A DNA stretch of 64,000 nucleotides from Gemmatimonadota bacterium (GCA_041482275.1 JBGPDL010000002.1:16545-80544), one strand, 5' to 3'. Counted from the first letter of the stretch, positions 4,160-58,322 are shown. Notes: a model not told the origin generated them from the letters alone. Program-made: numbers and translations.

Positions 4160-4853
4160 GGCTCTCCCCCCGGCCCTGCAGCGTCTGCAATGCGATGTTC
4201 ACCAGCAGTGCGAGGAGCAGCAGGATGAGCCCGAGCGCGAGCGCGAGGCCGAAGTCGCCTTGACTCGTGTACAGGGCGACGGCGGTGGTGAGCGTGCGGG
4301 TCTGGCCGCGGATGTTGCCGCCCACGGTCATCGCAGACCCGATCTCGGCGACGATGTGCCCGAAAGCGGTCGTGACCACGGCGGCGAGCGCGAAGCGGGC
4401 CTCGCGCGCCACCGTCCACGCCGTCCGCCAGCGGCTCGCGCCGAGCGTCTCGGCGGTGCGGCGGATGCGGGGATCCACGCCCTGGACCGCGGCGGCGGCC
4501 AGCGCGGCGGCGATGGGCAGCGCGAGCAGCACGTCGCCTACGACGATGGCCTGCCAGGTGTACAGCCACTCCATCCCGCCGAGTGGCCCCCGGCGAGACA
4601 GCATGCCGTACAACAGGAGACCGATCACCACCGTGGGAAACGCGAGCGCCGTGTTCACCACGGTGAGAGCGGCGCGACGGCCCCAGAACGGCTTGGTCGC
4701 GAGGAGAAAACCGGCGGGGAGGCCCAGCGCGCAGGCGACGAGCGTGGCGAGAAAGCCGACCTTGAGCGTGAGGAGGGCGATGCCGTACACCTCGGCGTCA
4801 CCCGAGAAGAGCAGCGCGACGGCGCGGCGGAATCCCTCCGCTAGAAAGTCCAT
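4152..4853 (-). CDS. ABC transporter permease (TupB/COG4662-like, tungstate/molybdate type)
   Basis: ORF 4152..5027, start re-set to ATG 4853 (MDFLAEGFRRAV...). Five or six hydrophobic helices. Overlaps the ATPase start by 8 nt. Confidence 0.78.
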   Translation of the reverse strand: MDFLAEGFRRAVALLFSGDAEVYGIALLTLKVGFLATLVACALGLPAGFLLATKPFWGRRAALTVVNTALAFPTVVIGLLLYGMLSRRGPLGGMEWLYTWQAIVVGDVLLALPIAAALAAAAVQGVDPRIRRTAETLGASRWRTAWTVAREARFALAAVVTTAFGHIVAEIGSAMTVGGNIRGQTRTLTTAVALYTSQGDFGLALALGLILLLLALLVNIALQTLQGRGESHA

Positions 4854-5569
4854 CCCACGCCGATCGTGGCCCACGGGTGCGCCGTCCACTCGTCCAGCGC
4901 GGCGGTGACCGGGAGGACGCGGCCGCCGTCGATGGCATTCGGCACCTTGTAGGAGACGGGATACTTGAGCTTCCAGAGCAGCAGGCGAAAGTCGCCGCGC
5001 ACGGAGAGGCGCCGGGCGGGGTACCACCGCAGCCCGGCGTTGGGAGCCAGGGTGATCTTGGTGCCGAACTGGTAGCCGCTGGTGTCGCGCGCCACGGTGC
5101 TGCCGACGGCCACGCCGAGCGCTCCGCCCACATACGGGGCGAACCCGTGCCAGGTCTTCCGGCCGGTGAGCACCAGCTGGAGCCCGGCGTCGGCGAGCAC
5201 CACGGTGTTGTCGAACGGGCCGCTCTTGCGCGACAGAGAATCCTTGGTGGGGTCCGCCACGAAGCTCGTCGTCCGCCCGTAGGCGAGGCCGAGTGACGCG
5301 CCGATGGCGCCGAGCTGCGGCTCGTAGCGGATCCCCCCCGTCACGCCATTGGAAAGGCCGACGCCCACGCTCCCCCGGCCGCCGCCCAGATACCCGAACG
5401 TCACGACCGCCACGCCGCCGCGCCGGACGTCGCCGTACGGGGAATGGGCGGGGTCGTGGCCGACCTGGGCGGATAGCCGGTGAAACGGGTGGGCGGTCAG
5501 CAGCACCGCCGCTGCGACCATCGCCGCCGCTCTAATCGCCCACCCGTCTAACCGGCTCGCCTTTCGCAT
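4841..5569 (-). CDS. Small outer-membrane beta-barrel protein, function unknown
   Basis: C-terminal 242 aa of ORF 4841..6655, from ATG 5569 (MRKASRLDGWAIRAAAMVAAAVLL = signal peptide). Alternating beta-strand pattern, Gly/aromatic rich, terminal ...GVGWTF. The start shares 1 nt with the gpmI stop. Confidence 0.6.
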   Translation of the reverse strand: MRKASRLDGWAIRAAAMVAAAVLLTAHPFHRLSAQVGHDPAHSPYGDVRRGGVAVVTFGYLGGGRGSVGVGLSNGVTGGIRYEPQLGAIGASLGLAYGRTTSFVADPTKDSLSRKSGPFDNTVVLADAGLQLVLTGRKTWHGFAPYVGGALGVAVGSTVARDTSGYQFGTKITLAPNAGLRWYPARRLSVRGDFRLLLWKLKYPVSYKVPNAIDGGRVLPVTAALDEWTAHPWATIGVGWTF

Positions 5570-22739: not shown

Positions 22740-23435
22740 TCACGGGCGCCGGTCCTCGAGATGACCCCGTAATTCATTGCGCGCCCTGTGGATATACGTC
22801 TTCACGGTGCCCAGGGGCAGCTCCAGGATGCGCGCAATCTCCTCGTAGCTGTGCCCTTCGACGTGGCGCAGCAGGATGCAGGCCCGGTACTCGGGCCGCA
22901 ATCGGGCGATGGCATGCTCGATCGCCCCGCCCAGCTCGCGCGCCTCGAGCTCCTGGAGCGGGCTCTCGCCCTTGTCCCCGAGCTGCAGCGCGGTGGCCTG
23001 CATCTGGTCGGGGGTCGTGGCGTGGGGCGAGCCGTCGAGCGACAGTGTCTCGAGCTCGCGCCGCCGCAGTTGATCGATCGCGGCGTTGTTCGCGATCTTG
23101 AAGATCCACGACGAGAACTTGAACTGCGGGTTGTACGAGCCGATGGCGTTCAAGACCTTGATGAACGTCTCCTGGGCCAGGTCTTCGGCGAGCGAGCGGT
23201 CGCGGACCATCCGATACAGCAGCGAGAAGACGGGCCGCTCATAGCGGCGGACCAGCTCGCGAAACGCGGCTTCGTGACCTTGGGCCGCCCACGCCACGAC
23301 CTCTTGGTCGCTGGCGCCCGTCAGGTTGCCCGGCCTATCTTTCGCGCTTATGACGCCGTCTCCTGCGTTCGAGGTGGCCGCGCACTCGGGCGGCGACGCG
23401 AAGCGGTCGTACGTGCGCGGCATGTTCACGGCCAT
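22740..23435 (-). CDS. ECF-type RNA polymerase sigma-70 factor
   Basis: ORF 22740..23435. Region 2 FRELVRRYERPVFSLLYRMVRDRSLAEDLAQETFIKV and region 4 SYEEIARILELPLGTVKTYIHRAR. Start uncertain, because 23435 would overlap the divergent ubiE start. Confidence 0.85.
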   Translation of the reverse strand: MAVNMPRTYDRFASPPECAATSNAGDGVISAKDRPGNLTGASDQEVVAWAAQGHEAAFRELVRRYERPVFSLLYRMVRDRSLAEDLAQETFIKVLNAIGSYNPQFKFSSWIFKIANNAAIDQLRRRELETLSLDGSPHATTPDQMQATALQLGDKGESPLQELEARELGGAIEHAIARLRPEYRACILLRHVEGHSYEEIARILELPLGTVKTYIHRARNELRGHLEDRRP

Positions 23436-24081
23436 CGCGCCGCGCTACGACGTCTTGAACCATCTGCTGAGCTTCAACGCCGACCGCTCGTGGCGCCGCG
23501 CCGCCGTGCGGCGGCTCGGGTGGGAGCGGCGGCCCGACGGCACCTATCTCGATCTCTGCGCCGGCACGCTCGACCTCGCGGCCACCCTCGCCCGCGAGCC
23601 CGGGTTCTCGGGGTGGGTGATCGGCGCGGACTTCGTGGTGGCCATGCTGGCACGGGGAAAGGGCAAGGCGGCTTGCACCCGACCAGTCGGCGCCGACGCG
23701 CTCACGCTCCCCTTCGCCGACGCCCGGTTCGACGGCGCCATGGTCGCTTTCGGAGTACGGAACCTGGCGGATCTCGACGCCGGGCTCAAGGAGGCGCATC
23801 GCGTGCTCCGGCCCGGCGCACGCTTCGTGGTGCTGGAGTTCGCCACCCCGCGCTTCGCGCCGCTGCGCGCGCTGTACCTCTTCTATTTCCGGCGCGTGCT
23901 CCCCGCGATCGGCCGCGCGGTGTCGAAACATAGGGACGCCTATACCTACCTGCCAGAGTCCGTGCTCGGCTTCCCCGATCCCGACGCGCTCGCCCGCCGG
24001 CTCGAGGGCGCTGGCTTCTCCGACGTGAGCTACCAGCGCCTCACGGGCGGGATCTGCGCCGTCCATCATGGCACTCGATAA
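23350..24081 (+). CDS. ubiE: Demethylmenaquinone/ubiquinone C-methyltransferase
   Basis: ORF 23326..24081, ATG 23350 preferred. MFTAIAPRYDVLNHLLSF...LDLCAGT SAM-MTase motifs typical of UbiE/MenG. Confidence 0.85.
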   Translation: MTPSPAFEVAAHSGGDAKRSYVRGMFTAIAPRYDVLNHLLSFNADRSWRRAAVRRLGWERRPDGTYLDLCAGTLDLAATLAREPGFSGWVIGADFVVAMLARGKGKAACTRPVGADALTLPFADARFDGAMVAFGVRNLADLDAGLKEAHRVLRPGARFVVLEFATPRFAPLRALYLFYFRRVLPAIGRAVSKHRDAYTYLPESVLGFPDPDALARRLEGAGFSDVSYQRLTGGICAVHHGTR

Positions 24082-25546
24082 TCTGCGCGCCTTCCTGGAC
24101 GCGATCGACGCCCGGGGCGACCTGGTGCGCGTGGCGCGGCCCGTCTCGGTCGACAAGGAGATGACGGAGATCGCCGACCGCTGCATGAAGTCGCCGGGTG
24201 GCGGGCCGGCGCTCTTGTTCGCGCACCCCACGTTGACGTCGGGGGGAGCGGCGCGCTATCCCGTCGCGGTGAACCTGTTCGGCTCCGAGGCTCGCATGGC
24301 GCTGGCGCTGGGGGTGGAACGCCTCGACGACATCGGGGAGCGCATCGCGGTGCTCTTGAATTTGAAGGTTCCCGACAGCCTGCTCGGCAAGCTGGCGATG
24401 CTGCCGCAGCTCGCGGAGATCGCGAAATTCCCGCCCAAGACGGCGGGCGGACGGCCGCCGTGTCAGGAGACGGTGATCCGCGACCGGGACGTGGACCTGT
24501 CGCAGTTCCCGGTGCCCGTGTGCTGGCCGGAGGACGGCGGCCCGTACATCACCCTCCCGGGGGTGATCACGCGCGATCCCGGGACGGGCGTGCGCAACGT
24601 CGGGATGTACCGCATCCAGGTCATCGGCCGCAACGAGCTCGCGATGCACTGGCAGCGCCACAAAGTCGGGGCGGCGCATTGGCGCGAGATGGCGCGGCGC
24701 GGTGAGCGGATGCCGGTGGCGGTCGCGCTGGGCGGCGATCCCGCGTCCATATACGCGGCGTCCGCGCCGCTGCCGCCCACGATTGACGAGTTCCTGTTTG
24801 CCGGGTTCCTGCGCAAGGAGCCGGTGCGACTCGCCAAGGCCGTCACCTCGGATCTGGAAGTCCCGGCGGAAGCCGAGCTCGTGCTCGAGGGCTACATCGA
24901 TCCCCGAGAAGAGTTGGTGCTCGAGGGGCCGTTCGGCGACCACACGGGGTTCTATTCGCTCGCGGACTATTACCCCAAAGTCCACGTCACCGCAATCACG
25001 ATGCGCACGGACCCCATCTGGCCGCACACCATCGTGGGGCGGCCGCCGATGGAGGACTACTGGCTGGGTCATGCGACGGAGCGGATCTTCCTGCCGCTGT
25101 TGAAGCTCACACTCCCCGAGGTCGTGGACCTGCACATGCCGGCGGAGGGGATCTTTCACAATCTCGTGTTCGTGAGCATCGACAAGCAGTATCCGGGGCA
25201 GGCCTACAAGGTGATGAACGGGTTGTGGGGCCAGGGATTGATGTCGCTCGCCAAGGTGATCGTCGTGCTGGACAAGGATGTGAACGTGCGCGATGCCAAG
25301 GAGGCATGGTGGGTGGCGTTGAACCACATCGATCCGGAGCGCGACGTCCGTTTCAGCCTCGGACCGATGGATGTACTCGACCACTCGAGCCGCGGCTTCA
25401 CGTTCGGCTCGAAGATGGGAATCGACGCGACGCGCAAGTGGAGGGAAGAAGGGTTTGCGCGGGAATGGCCCGGCAAGATCGTCATGGACCCGGAAACGAA
25501 GCGGCGGGTGGACGAGATGTGGAGGGAACTTGGCATCGAGCTCTGA
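24068..25546 (+). CDS. UbiD-family (prenylated-FMN dependent) decarboxylase
   Basis: ORF 24068..25546. MALDNLRAFLDAIDARGDLVRV...GMYRIQV...GPFGDHTGFY are UbiD hallmarks. Confidence 0.9.
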   Translation: MALDNLRAFLDAIDARGDLVRVARPVSVDKEMTEIADRCMKSPGGGPALLFAHPTLTSGGAARYPVAVNLFGSEARMALALGVERLDDIGERIAVLLNLKVPDSLLGKLAMLPQLAEIAKFPPKTAGGRPPCQETVIRDRDVDLSQFPVPVCWPEDGGPYITLPGVITRDPGTGVRNVGMYRIQVIGRNELAMHWQRHKVGAAHWREMARRGERMPVAVALGGDPASIYAASAPLPPTIDEFLFAGFLRKEPVRLAKAVTSDLEVPAEAELVLEGYIDPREELVLEGPFGDHTGFYSLADYYPKVHVTAITMRTDPIWPHTIVGRPPMEDYWLGHATERIFLPLLKLTLPEVVDLHMPAEGIFHNLVFVSIDKQYPGQAYKVMNGLWGQGLMSLAKVIVVLDKDVNVRDAKEAWWVALNHIDPERDVRFSLGPMDVLDHSSRGFTFGSKMGIDATRKWREEGFAREWPGKIVMDPETKRRVDEMWRELGIEL

Positions 25547-26438
25547 GGCGCAGCGCGAGGGCCAGACCTACGCGGGCGAGAGCCTCCTGGTCCGCTACGC
25601 CAACTTCGTCAAGCTCCCGCACACGGTGTTCGCGCTGCCGTTCGCGCTGCTCGGCGTCGTGGCAGCGTCGTGGCGCGCGCCCGTCACGCCGCGGACGCTC
25701 GGGCTCGTGGTGCTGGCGTTCACGGCAGCCCGCTTCGTGGCGATGGGGTTCAACCGCATCGCCGACCGCGAACTCGACGCCCGCAATCCTCGCACCCGCG
25801 GGCGCGAGCTGCCCGCCGGCCGGCTGACGCTCGCTCAGGCGTGGGCGGCGGTCCTGGCCGCGGCGGCGCTGTTTCTCTGGGCGACCCGGGCGCTCAATCC
25901 GTTGTGCTTCCGACTTGCACCGATCGCGCTCGCGGTCGTCACCTTCTACAGCTACTCCAAACGGTTCACCTGGTGGTCCCACCTGTGGCTCGGTTTTGGC
26001 GACGCGATCGCCGGGCCGGCCGGTTTTCTCGCGGTGTCCGGCCAGTGGAGCGCGCCCTCGTGGCTGTTGTGGGTACTGGCCGCCGCCGTGACGTTCTGGG
26101 TGGGCGGGTTCGACATCTTCTATGCGCTGCCGGACGAGCACTTCGACCGCACCGAAGGATTGCACTCCGCGGTCGTGCGGTTCGGACAGGGGCGGAGCAT
26201 CGCCCTGGCGAAGGGGCTGCACGGGCTCGCGGTGGTTTCGCTGATCGCGTTCGGTGTGGGAGCGGGACTGGGGCCGGTGTACTACGGTGGCGTGGCGCTC
26301 GGCGCGGGGATCATCGCTTGGGAGCACCGGATGGTGAAACCGGGCGACCTGTCGCGGCTCAATGCGGCATTCTTTACCGCGAACGGCATCGTGAGCATTG
26401 TGGTGTTCCTGGGTGCTCTCGTGGATCGGGTGACATGA
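25530..26438 (+). CDS. UbiA-family aromatic prenyltransferase
   Basis: ORF 25371..26438. The conserved part begins at YANFVKLPHTVFALPFALLG. There is no ATG/GTG after the ubiD stop, so TTG 25530 (17-nt overlap) is my best guess. NRIADRELD motif. Confidence 0.78.
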   Translation: MASSSEAQREGQTYAGESLLVRYANFVKLPHTVFALPFALLGVVAASWRAPVTPRTLGLVVLAFTAARFVAMGFNRIADRELDARNPRTRGRELPAGRLTLAQAWAAVLAAAALFLWATRALNPLCFRLAPIALAVVTFYSYSKRFTWWSHLWLGFGDAIAGPAGFLAVSGQWSAPSWLLWVLAAAVTFWVGGFDIFYALPDEHFDRTEGLHSAVVRFGQGRSIALAKGLHGLAVVSLIAFGVGAGLGPVYYGGVALGAGIIAWEHRMVKPGDLSRLNAAFFTANGIVSIVVFLGALVDRVT

Positions 26439-26444
26439 ACCTCG

Positions 26445-26529
26445 TGCGTGGTGCGTGGTGCGTGGTCTCTCCGCCGCGTCGGAAGCCCCCGGTGCCACGG
26501 GGGCAACCACGTACCACGCACCACGTACC
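26445..26529 (+). repeat. Triple-heptad inverted repeat (23-bp stem, nested inner hairpin) in the ubiA-ubiX spacer
   Basis: 26445-26467 is GTGCGTG x3 + GT. 26507-26529 is ACCACGT ACCACGC ACCACGT AC. 21 Watson-Crick plus 2 G:T pairs, checked base by base. Inner stem 26486-26492 / 26499-26505. Confidence 0.9.
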
Positions 26530-26592
26530 GCCCCCGGCTCGTCCGCCCGCTCATCCGCGGCGCTCTCCCACTCCCAATCGCCGCGGGCGCTG

Positions 26593-27180
26593 ATGAGCAA
26601 GCTTCCCGTCATTCTCGCGATCACCGGCGCCTCCGGCGCGCCGTACGGTGTGCGGCTGCTCGAGATGCTCGCGGTGCACACCGTGCCCACGTGGCTGCTG
26701 ATCTCGAGCCACGGCTGGCGCCTGCTCACGCAGGAGTGCGGCATCAACGACGACCGCGAGCTCAAGAAGGCCACAGGGGGCGATTGGACGAGCGTGCGGG
26801 TGTTCGACGACAAGGACCGCGGCGCCGAGCCCGCGTCGGGCTCGGCCAGGACGGCGGGAATGGTGATCTGCCCGTGCTCCATGGGCACTGTGGCCGCGAT
26901 CGCGCACGGCACGAGCCGCTCGCTCATCGAGCGCGCGGCGGATGTGGTGCTGAAGGAGCGCCGCACGCTGGTGCTCGTGCCGCGCGAGACGCCGCTCTCG
27001 CTGGTGCACCTCCGCAATCTCACCCGCGCCACGGAGGCCGGCGCCATCGTGCTGCCGGCTGCCCCCGGGTTCTACCACAAGCCGCAGAAGGTGGCTGACC
27101 TCGTGGACTTCGTGGTGCAGCGCGTGCTCGACCACCTGGGGCTCGACATCGCGTTGGTCAAGCGGTGGCAGCAGGAGTGA
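26593..27180 (+). CDS. ubiX: Flavin prenyltransferase UbiX
   Basis: ORF 26455..27180, start re-set to ATG 26593 (MSKLPVILAITGASGAPYGVRLLEML). CPCSMGT motif. Confidence 0.9.
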   Translation: MSKLPVILAITGASGAPYGVRLLEMLAVHTVPTWLLISSHGWRLLTQECGINDDRELKKATGGDWTSVRVFDDKDRGAEPASGSARTAGMVICPCSMGTVAAIAHGTSRSLIERAADVVLKERRTLVLVPRETPLSLVHLRNLTRATEAGAIVLPAAPGFYHKPQKVADLVDFVVQRVLDHLGLDIALVKRWQQE

Positions 27181-36539: not shown

Positions 36540-37936
36540 ATGACCGACACCTTGATGGTCGGGGTCTCGGGCGTCCGCGGCATCGTCGGGAAGGACTTGA
36601 CCGAGGAGATCGTGGCGCGCTGGGCCCGCGCGTTCGGGCGTTGGGTGCGCGAGGGGAGGGCCGGGGGACGGGGGACGCGTGTGTCCGTCGTGGTCGGGCG
36701 CGATGCGCGGACCTCGGGACCCGCGTTCACCGCCGCCGTGACCGCCGGCCTGACCGCTGCCGGCTGCGACGTGGTCGACGTCGGCCTCGTGCCCACCCCC
36801 ACGGTCCAGCTCGCGGTCGAGTACCACCACGCGGGCGGCGGGATCGCGATCACGGCGAGCCACAACCCGATCGAGTGGAACGCACTGAAGTTCATCGGCT
36901 CGGACGGGATATTCCTCGACGGGGACGACGGTCGCCGAGTGTCCGAGCTCGCCGCGCCGCAGGGGGAACGGGGGACCCTCAAGGACTCCCTGACGGTCGC
37001 GGGGGGAGGGGGAAGGGTAGAGACGGACGCCCACGCTGTCGAGCGGCATCTCGACGGAGTGTTGCAGCTGTCGGCGGTGGACCTTCAGGGGATTCGGAAG
37101 CGGAGGTTCGCGGTGGCACTCGATGCGGTGCGTGGGGCGGGAGGCCCCGTGATGCGCACGCTGCTCGAGCGGCTGGGCTGTCGTGTCGTGGGGATCAACC
37201 TCGAGACGGACGGTCGGTTTCCTCGTGCGCCCGAGCCGATTCCGGAGAACCTGGGTGAGCTCGCCGCCCTGGTGCGTCGCTCGGGCACGGATGTCGGCCT
37301 CGCCGTGGACCCGGACGTGGACCGGATGGCGATCGTGGACGACCGAGGCGCGCCGATCGGGGAGGACTATACGCTGGCGCTGGCGGTGAGAGCGGTGTTG
37401 GGGCAGGGGGAAGAGGGAAGACGGAAGGGTGCCGTCGTCGTTTGCAACCTGTCCACGAGCCTCGTCGTCGAAGACGCGGCGCGCGAGTGCGGCGCCGAGG
37501 TCGTGCGTACGCCGGTGGGCGAGGCTCACGTCGCACGGAAGATCATCGAGCTCAGGGCCCCGATCGGCGGCGAAGGGAACGGCGGGGTGATATATCCCGC
37601 GTTGCACGTCGGGCGCGACGCGCCGGTGGCCGCGGCGCTGCTGCTCACGCTGCTCGCCCGGGAGGGCCGTCGGGTGAGCGAGCTGGTGGTGGCGGCCCCG
37701 CGGTACGTGATCGTCAAGGCCAAGGTGCCCCGAGGCCCGGCGCTCGAGCCGGTGTACGCCGCGCTGCGCCGAGGGCTCGCCGACGCCCGGGCGGACACGC
37801 AGGACGGCTTGCGCCTGGCCTGGCGCGACCGCTGGCTCCACGTGCGACCGTCGAATACGGAGCCGATCATCCGGCTCATCGCCGAAGCGCCGACCGGCGC
37901 GGCGGCGCGGGACCTGGTCGACGAAGGACGGCGTCT

Positions 37937-54410: not shown

Positions 54411-55041
54411 ATCAGCCCCGCGATCGCCTCCCGCAGCTCCTCAATCCCTTCGATCCGCCGGGCGCTGGTCGCGATCACCTGATCGTCGCCCAGCTCGAGC
54501 GTCTGGCGCAGCTCGCGCTCTCGCCGCCCGCGCCCGGCGCGCGCCAGCGTGTCACTCTTCGTGAGGACCACGAGCACCCGCGTGCCGCGCTCGGCGAACA
54601 GCTCCTGCATCGCGCGGTCGTCCGCGGACGGCTCGTGGCGGATGTCGAGCAGCCAGAGTACCCCGACGAGGGTGGGGCGCTTGAGCGCGTGGGTGATGAG
54701 GAGGCGGAACGCCCGGCGGTCGGTCTGCGACGCGCGCGCGTACCCGTAGCCGGGGAGATCCAGAACGTACAGGGAGCGGGGAGCAGGGAGCGGTTCCTGA
54801 CGCTGCGCCGGAGGGCACCGCTCCCCGCTCCCCGCTCCCAGGACATACACGTTCAGCATCCGCGTCTTCCCCGGCGTGCCGGAGATTTTCGCGATCCGTC
54901 GCCCCGCCAGGGCATTCAGCAGGCTCGATTTGCCGACGTTGGAGCGGCCCAGCAGGGCGATTTCAGGGAGGGCGGGAGCAAGGGAAACGTCGGCCCGGGG
55001 AAACGAGCCGAGGAAGCGGGGCTCGGCGGGAGCGGGGGGGG

Positions 55042-58198: not shown

Positions 58199-58251
58199 CG
58201 GGAAGAAATCTAACAGGTCCAGCGGGACACGCAGGGAGCAGAACATGCCAC

Positions 58252-58301
58252 GGCTAGACGCACAGACGCACAGCAGGAGAGTTGGGGGGTCGCGTCTAGC
58301 C
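58252..58301. other. 10-bp perfect inverted repeat with a tandem 8-mer in the left arm, in the DUF421-tig spacer
   Basis: GGCTAGACGC (58252-58261) and GCGTCTAGCC (58292-58301). AGACGCAC is repeated twice at 58256-58271. TTTT follows on the + strand only, whereas the flanking genes are on the minus strand. Confidence 0.7.
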
Positions 58302-58322
58302 TTTTCCCGTTCTGTCCCCTGC

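Follow-up and report, generated by a model that had tools for sequence, protein, structure and literature searches.

A heptad-repeat hairpin within a conserved small open reading frame between ubiA and ubiX of a Gemmatimonadota bacterium, and the class of palindromes to which it belongs

Results

The DNA analyzed here (the window) is a stretch of 64,000 nucleotides from a Gemmatimonadota bacterium (GCA_041482275.1, JBGPDL010000002.1:16545-80544) with a G+C content of 70%. It carries ubiE, ubiD, ubiA and ubiX on the same strand, with a heptad-repeat hairpin between the last two genes, and a second element of the same kind inside engB (Table 1). The relatives of its UbiX found in species-representative genomes (n = 80, 68-91% identity) all came from Gemmatimonadales/Gemmatimonadota MAGs, which places the window in an uncultured member of the order Gemmatimonadales. 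The initial annotation described the 154 nt between the ubiA stop codon (26436-38) and the ubiX ATG (26593) as a spacer, the only sizeable one in the gene string. Its length and its singular position were borne out, but the region, which gene callers left empty, is a conserved protein-coding small open reading frame (sORF) and not a spacer.

Table 1. Position of the genes, reading frames and hairpin parts discussed in the text
Feature	Position	Strand	Evidence or sequence
ubiE/menG	ORF 23326-24081; called gene start near 23350	+	Pfam
ubiD	24068-25546	+	Pfam
ubiA-family prenyltransferase	25530-26438	+	PF01040, E = 1.8e-49; gene call in identical contig
sORF, 52 codons, unannotated	26435-26593	+	translation MNLVRGAWCVVSPPRRKPPVPRGQPRTTHHVPPPARPPAHPRRSPTPNRRGR, then stop
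Left, G-rich arm	26444-26466	+	GTGCGTG x3 + GT; peptide VRGAWCVV
Loop, 39 nt	26467-26505	+	contains the 7-bp GC stem; peptide SPPRRKPPVPRGQ
Inner GC stem, 7 bp	26485-26491 with 26498-26504	+	loop GTGCCA; RNA fold
Right, C-rich arm	26506-26528	+	ACCACGT ACCACGC ACCACGT AC; peptide PRTTHHV
sORF, conserved C-terminal 20 codons	26531-26590	+	PPARPPAHPRRSPTPNRRGR; 45 loci
ubiX (flavin prenyltransferase)	26593-27180	+	PF02441, E = 4.3e-39; gene calls
Second class member, inside engB	54767-54844	-	on the engB sense strand: GGGAGCG x3, 24-nt loop, CCGCTCC CTGCTCC CCGCTCC + C

The left arm of the hairpin begins 5 nt past the ubiA stop codon. The structure, with three heptads in each arm, was present as first described, although every coordinate given there was one base too high, and pairing base by base gave the same count of 21 Watson-Crick and two G:T pairs (26446/26526 and 26460/26512). 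A repeat finder returned arms of 23 nt each, 91% complementary and 39 nt apart, and Tandem Repeats Finder resolved them into arrays of period 7 with 3.3 and 3.4 copies. The + strand RNA folded at -70.7 kcal/mol, compared with -48.6 +/- 3.8 kcal/mol for 200 shuffled sequences (z = -5.9, none of the 200 as good), and the - strand RNA at -66.1 kcal/mol (z = -4.3). With up to 3 mismatches the 23-mer of the arm matched the two arms only (shuffle expectation 0.00). Perfect heptad arrays with 2.8 or more units numbered just two in the 64-kb window, and each of them is a hairpin arm. The identical hairpin sequence was present in independent NCBI, JGI and Logan assemblies, ruling out an assembly artefact. 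The ubiA-ubiX hairpin is real and highly non-random. Short-read contigs of this region stopped at or inside it (the contig of related locus L004 at 26528, that of L005 55 nt into the element and a Logan contig at 26466), and several MAG contigs began just 5' of ubiX.

No T-run was found 3' of the right arm, where the stem is followed by CCGCCCCCGG, and a terminator scan gave no terminator-like match at the hairpin, in agreement with the earlier statement that this is not a canonical terminator. Rfam gave no match in the window at the gathering threshold; at E <= 10 the hairpin region drew only sub-threshold matches, none meaningful, among them generic miRNA-precursor models over the hairpin itself, and an unrelated sRNA model (CcsR1) matched downstream of it, at 26555-26586, likewise below threshold. 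A plasmid collection search also returned no match. The GTGCGTG unit has no GG(G) run, whereas the units of other members, such as GGGAGCG and GGGGAAC, do. The arms end in GTGC...GTAC with no conserved GTAG/CGTC tetranucleotide at the end of the palindrome, and the heptads vary between copies.

The sORF is joined to its neighbours at both ends, its ATG overlapping the ubiA stop codon as ATGA (26435-26438) and its TGA (26591-26593) sharing its A with the ubiX ATG (TGATG). The last codon of ubiA, before TGA, is the rare A-ending ACA, and an A-ending last codon (CTA, ACA, ATA, TTA or GTA) was found in most relatives. Gene ends that precede an element read ATGA in 17 of 24 cases and GTGA in 6, whereas elsewhere ATGA accounted for 31 and GTGA for 82 of 319. 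The overlap of the ubiA stop with the sORF start is probably under selection.

Translations of the sORF upstream of ubiX at about 50 loci ended in ...PPRPPAHP[KR]RSPTPNRRGR, with the stop codon overlapping the ubiX start. Over the last 20 codons, at 45 loci, the entropy was 0.66, 0.56 and 1.53 bits at codon positions 1, 2 and 3, and switches were seen between the TCN and AGY codons of serine and the CGN and AGR codons of arginine, which together point to selection on the sORF peptide. The frame was open in 17 ubiA-linked sORFs of the window's clade, which fell into 8 lengths from 49 to 61 aa and bore differing hairpins. The hairpin occupies the variable N-terminal two-thirds of the sORF. Since the only in-frame starts lie at 26435, 26444, 26462 and 26492, none of them 3' of the hairpin, translation of the C-terminus would require reading through at least the right arm. 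The loop peptide reads RRKPPVPRGQ in the window, and RRKPxVPRG is common to loci L010, L014, L020 and L034; the constraint on the loop seems to act on its peptide and not on a nested stem. In distant relatives the sORF was clean, 49 codons long and opened by an ATG with a Shine-Dalgarno sequence (MSKRPKENLIPQRGRGKPRPEKG..PKVPPPAPERHPV.TPTANRRGR), and this 49-aa version formed 7 clusters, named 'hypothetical protein' wherever a source gave a name. The sORF of the window, searched in frame against 1.84 billion representatives, matched nothing at E <= 0.001. At two loci where ubiX is not adjacent (L026 and L028) the sORF nevertheless adjoined ubiA. With its invariant C-terminus (HP.RSPTPNRRGR and stop), its N-terminus that varies and a stop/start overlap on either side, the sORF is reminiscent of regulatory or arrest peptides in its anatomy. 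At L037 a GGGGAAC hairpin (4300-4378) lay between ubiD and ubiA, in frame with ubiA from a GTGA at the ubiD stop, and its translation may lengthen UbiA at the N-terminus.

A census of tandem arrays with an inverted partner within 120 nt was made over the window and related loci (1.35 Mb). Period 7 stood out, with 59 of 235 arrays paired, compared with 3/144 for period 5, 0/253 for period 6, 5/22 for period 8, 1/7 for period 9 and 0/4 for period 10. In all, 83 inverted heptad pairs were catalogued, and the 80 of these with a loop of at most 130 nt, from about 1.3 Mb of Gemmatimonadales DNA, correspond to one per 14-18 kb. Arms usually had 3-5 units (median 3.7-4.1), loops had a median of 42 nt (range 17-129) and the median fold energy was -60 kcal/mol. 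The G-rich arm came first in 71 of the 80 pairs and the C-rich arm in 3, a polarity independent of the strand chosen. Possibly the C-rich arm is thereby never exposed as single-stranded RNA, so that Rho loading would be avoided in both directions of transcription. Because crude GC3-based gene calling was too noisy, stop- and start-anchored tests were used instead, and by these no more than 15 nt separated a facing stop codon from the start of the arm in 48 of 54 cases (median 2 nt). Forty distinct heptads were found. A common core, G-Y-G-A-R, was weak, and as a shared motif it was dropped because it barely exceeded the shuffled controls (174 against 162.7 +/- 4.6, with 2 of 100 shuffles reaching 174).

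Comparison of the ubiA-sORF junction in related genomes revealed a heptad hairpin in nearly every one of some 28 close relatives, built from differing sequences (GTGCGTG, GTGCGCG, GGAACGC, GGGAGCG, GCGGATT, GCGGAAT, GCGGGAT, GGGGAAC, GGGAAAC and others). In more distant genomes other operon junctions carried heptad hairpins as well. No heptad consensus in the window's clade (loci up to L037) had a stop codon in any frame of either arm, in part because the units use three letters (G/A/C or G/T/C), so that selection need not be involved. In the more distant genomes, on the other hand, most heptads contained TGA as G(T)GA (for example GGTGAAA, GTGAGCG and GAGACGT), so that each of the three frames meets a stop, and genes upstream often ended inside the array. 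Hairpins of this type were seen at successive operon junctions among L038-L081 (for example L042 8810-8933, L052 8900-9004, L058 8816-8920). There seem to be two designs, the elements of the window's clade being read through and the distant TGA-type elements not. The ubiA-ubiX hairpin itself is a member of an order-wide class, and no regulatory structure peculiar to the ubi operon.

Some further repeats were observed. A metagenome scan for GTGCGTG x3 gave 120 loci, most of them hairpin-less arrays of unrelated, lower-GC organisms; hairpins were present in 10 of the first 80 loci and, in a stricter rescan, in 8 of 120. The window holds G-rich arrays with no partner nearby at 36658-36677 and 37408-37427 (GGGACGG x2.9 and GGGAAGA x2.9), apparently coding, which may be half-elements or relics, and long inverted repeats not made of heptads at 2667-2741, 5475-5557 and 58231-58322 (arms of 26-31 nt, 77-85% complementary). 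A second palindromic module, GTCATCC(T/C)GAGCGAAGCGAGGGA..., which we take to be a repeat widespread in soil bacteria, lay in the loops of several elements (L052 12241-12411, L058 2944-3048, L065 8480-8713, L067 9778-9986 and L075 4773-4968) and suggests nested or composite elements.

The engB gene (TIGR03598 YsxC, E = 1.6e-43) carries its element in frame. The element folded at -63 kcal/mol and adds about 19-22 aa in the beta2-beta3 turn, where query residues 69-90 replace the 3-residue turn of B. subtilis YsxC (1sul). An in-frame insert of 11-38 hypervariable aa was present in about 95% of the 120 closest EngB homologues, from Gemmatimonadales, and only about six had the canonical turn of 6-7 residues. 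Wherever the peptide allowed the heptad family to be identified (GAGSGER..PLPAPRS; VRGAWCVV..TTHH; GSGEWGV..PLPTPHS; GARGSGL...), the insert had a 7-aa periodicity. All five inserts examined as DNA were hairpins (-31 to -70 kcal/mol), and four were built from heptads. The fifth, from the engB of L214 (10001-10615), was a perfect non-heptad 12-bp palindrome, TAGGGGCGCAGC ATGC GCTGCGCCCCTA, folding at -30.6 kcal/mol; some lineages, of the insert type VVGAQHAAPL, carried such a palindrome at the site. The TGTAYGTYCT flanks of the insert (VYVL/LYVL), considered as a target-site duplication, are the native beta2 and beta3 strands.

The force that maintains the hairpins was approached through their mismatches. 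The two G:T pairs of the ubiA-ubiX outer stem, which would be wobbles in the sense RNA, had been taken together with the engB element as a strand bias suggesting selection on an RNA structure. Over all copies the stem cells comprised 1622 Watson-Crick, 42 G:T, 52 A:C and 102 other pairs. The 51 copies with an assignable sense held 31 G:U-type, 25 A:C-type and 59 other mismatches (binomial p = 0.50), and the strand bias is a coincidence of two copies. The initial annotation had itself reasoned that A:C mismatches as frequent as G:U in the sense strand would speak against RNA-level selection, and the two were similarly frequent. Across 4 orthologues the outer helix was 92% paired, with 4 double-sided changes. 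At L014 one heptad position had changed from T to C in successive units of the left arm and from A to G at the partners, at columns 19, 26 and 33, and this spacing of 7 points to homogenisation of units rather than to independent compensatory mutation. The nested GC stem described earlier is present in the window but lineage-specific: in the same 4 orthologues it was 75% paired, 3 of its 7 pairs were broken somewhere, and no compensatory change was seen. Selection for pairing needs no likeness of units within an arm, which suggests that a generator (slippage or conversion) is at work; the known excess of heptamer simple-sequence repeats (SSRs) in bacteria supports this (PMC4679880, PMC4692102). 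Nothing found in these comparisons pointed to selection on RNA structure as the maintaining force.

The same families recurred at unrelated loci. The GTGCGTG hairpin was also present in the engB of L091 and L092, where it encodes the same VRGAWCVV..TTHH peptide, and the family of the window's engB (GGGAGCG, with loop ends TTCCT...GGAGGGYA) was also present in the ubiA-ubiX sORF of L018. Of 42 pairs of different loci within one genome, 19 (45%) had a heptad in common with 1 mismatch allowed, compared with 10% between genomes, and several copies of L042 had a loop of about 78 nt in common. The window lacks an element at the MatE/SAM_HAT junction (TAA, 14 nt, ATG), where five relatives carry a GGAACGC hairpin; in all five the hairpin lies within an ORF whose start overlaps the upstream stop as ATGA or GTGA and whose own stop precedes the next ATG by 1-2 nt. 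No target-site duplication was seen at the ubiA or MatE junctions, and no transposase or other mobility signature was found. The ubiA-ubiX hairpin has inverted arms but lacks a target-site duplication of the MITE type. L005 was 99.3% identical to the window over 5.9 kb, diverged at 26440 and bore GCGGAAC x3 (L005 5864-5919). Of its 39 mismatches, 20 fell within the last 210 nt of ubiA and 2 within the preceding 4.2 kb, a clustering which indicates import of another allele by homologous recombination. Transposition between these near-identical strains was rejected as the source of the heptad swap.

Discussion

We found no description of this class in Gemmatimonadota in the literature. The closest published description is that of Xanthomonas, whose genomes each contain 70-75 inverted pairs of the GGGAATC heptamer (Rehm et al. 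2015, PMC4692102), about 90% of them intergenic, just 3' of ORFs and mostly between co-directional genes, at loci conserved in related species but variable in length and sequence (PMC4692102). The likeness lies in the convergent tandem heptamer arrays with the G-rich arm first, their place close behind the upstream ORF, and the filling of the same loci in relatives with variable sequence. Xanthomonas differs in having one heptad with a GGG run per genome, read as G-quadruplex-forming (PMC4692102), whereas the heptads of Gemmatimonadales number in the dozens, frequently with several in the same genome, and many have no G-runs (for example GTGCGTG); copies also lie inside reading frames (sORFs, engB).

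The Rickettsia palindromic elements (RPEs; PMC10969869) are likewise palindromic, of several families, in frame in unrelated and even essential genes, and translated; they add surface peptides, and their means of mobility is unknown (PMC10969869). In agreement with this behaviour the sORF frame was kept through the hairpin in 8 length classes and the engB insert is in frame. However, RPEs measure about 100-150 bp, have a conserved sequence and peptide in each family and lack tandem-heptad arms, so that on description phylum and architecture set them apart from the heptad palindromes. A REP-like role, one of three suggested at the outset, came closest. Proteobacterial REP/BIME/REPIN sequences (PMC3733652, PMC3116915) are also short GC-rich multicopy palindromes after stop codons or between operon genes, in genome-specific families and without target-site duplication. 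They have a conserved GTAG or CGTC head, are mobilised by RAYT transposases, are extragenic by definition and do not have tandem-repeat arms; the ubiA-ubiX hairpin lacks the REP head, and the copies in the window lie inside engB and the coding sORF. The STRR heptamers of cyanobacteria and the TAACTGA repeats of Beggiatoaceae (PMC4679880) resemble the class in their tandem 7-nt units, abundant between genes, some of which stop all three frames as do the GTGA-type heptads of distant Gemmatimonadales. Most are direct arrays that lack an inverted partner, and they lie upstream of start codons; one inverted case was reported among 170 heptamer sets of the Guaymas 'Maribeggiatoa' (PMC4679880).

We lean towards reading the hairpin as a REP/RPE-like palindromic repeat derived from heptamer arrays, maintained by processes at the DNA level and tolerated at sites through which ribosomes pass. 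Replication slippage would keep the units within an arm alike, and hairpin-templated copying or gene conversion would keep the arms complementary and spread variants between loci; the sequence of the unit would drift or be swapped and the architecture would persist. Copies would be retained only at permissive sites of these compact genomes, in the window's clade translated ones such as the variable N-terminus of the sORF and the surface turn of EngB. Ribosomes ending ubiA would restart on the overlapping ATG of the sORF, melt the -70 kcal/mol stem, reach the C-terminus of the sORF and hand over to ubiX. Such read-through would neutralise the hairpin, leaving no stable duplex for RNases or termination, and would tie the output of the sORF and ubiX to the upstream ribosome flux. 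From this arrangement we infer a local relay or coupling effect on ubiX output, and effects of the hairpin at the RNA level are possible. Against this reading, the near-universal presence of elements at the ubiA-sORF junction and in engB, across deep divergence, would fit positive selection for the hairpin equally as well as a 'safe haven'.

A selected RNA element is a serious rival, although we consider it rather unlikely. The hairpin would block 3' exonucleases, offer a site to RNase III or throttle translation, setting the output of the sORF and ubiX relative to ubiE, ubiD and ubiA, and its place would be conserved by function. This would account for a hairpin after the ubiA stop in nearly every close relative despite differing sequence, for the filled operon junctions of more distant genomes, for the high stability of stems across the class and for the well-paired outer helix with its double-sided changes. 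The short distance from the ubiA stop to the stem also suits it; Liang, Rudd and Deutscher reportedly found in 2015 that E. coli REPs at such a distance from the stop codon lower upstream translation. However, no preference for G:U in the sense strand was seen, periodicity within the arms is unnecessary for pairing, and one family occurs in both orientations relative to its host gene. In addition, the copies of the window's clade lie in reading frames, so that ribosomes would hold them melted, and class members lie inside the essential engB coding sequence, where cleavage or termination would be harmful. The engB members equally oppose an intrinsic (Rho-independent) terminator or attenuator between ubiA and ubiX, a reading to which the GC-rich stem directly after a stop codon might lead; it is contradicted by the anatomy, since there is no T-run and the stem lies inside a conserved coding sORF translationally coupled at both ends, and we regard it as extremely improbable.

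The arrays might also be a by-product of simple-sequence formation in situ, with neither spread nor function; local slippage would give the arrays, template switching their inverted copies, and convergence from mutation bias the similar heptads at different loci. In many bacteria no other class of long SSR is as over-represented as heptamers, for which a polymerase-footprint explanation has been proposed (PMC4679880, PMC4692102); most metagenomic GTGCGTG x3 arrays lack an inverted partner, and solo G-rich arrays occur in the window itself. We nevertheless hold this origin to be improbable, since unrelated loci bear the same arms along with related loop ends, the copies of L042 have a loop in common, sharing of heptads is 4.5 times commoner within than between genomes, and a G-first polarity of 71 to 3 is unexpected from random template switching. 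A strict 7-nt periodicity, the weak core across the 40 heptads and the symmetrical use of both strands would agree, on the other hand, with a protein-binding site in DNA, that is, iterons for a recombinase, a transposase, a nucleoid protein or a single-strand binder (a cold-shock-domain protein, with 7 nt per domain). This is very improbable: several unrelated heptads occur within one genome, the core is only marginally above shuffles and fits the window's heptad poorly, and no candidate protein emerged.

Extending the preferred reading of DNA-level upkeep and read-through, it is possible, though we put this forward tentatively and with some doubt, that a self-homogenising, translation-compatible class has colonised the beta-turn of EngB, the N-terminus of a ubiA-linked micro-protein and stop-to-start 'relay' ORFs throughout Gemmatimonadales, and that its members are covered, and so neutralised, by host ribosomes or have been co-opted as translational throttles. 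If this is true, the heptad palindromes would be colonising elements and a bacterial counterpart of the Rickettsia palindromic elements, arising from a simple-sequence generator and not from a fixed sequence. The class joins two hitherto separate literatures, those on the unexplained excess of heptamer SSRs in bacteria and on palindromic selfish elements inside reading frames.

For the genomes themselves, what seemed a regulatory spacer holds a conserved micro-protein gene overlooked by gene callers, and essential genes such as engB bear hypervariable inserts derived from repeats. Heptad hairpins break short-read contigs at their arms and so leave Gemmatimonadota MAGs fragmented. The class offers a natural system for the coexistence of ribosomes with very stable mRNA hairpins, and it raises the question of whether relay ORFs are a general means of keeping translational coupling across an inserted element.
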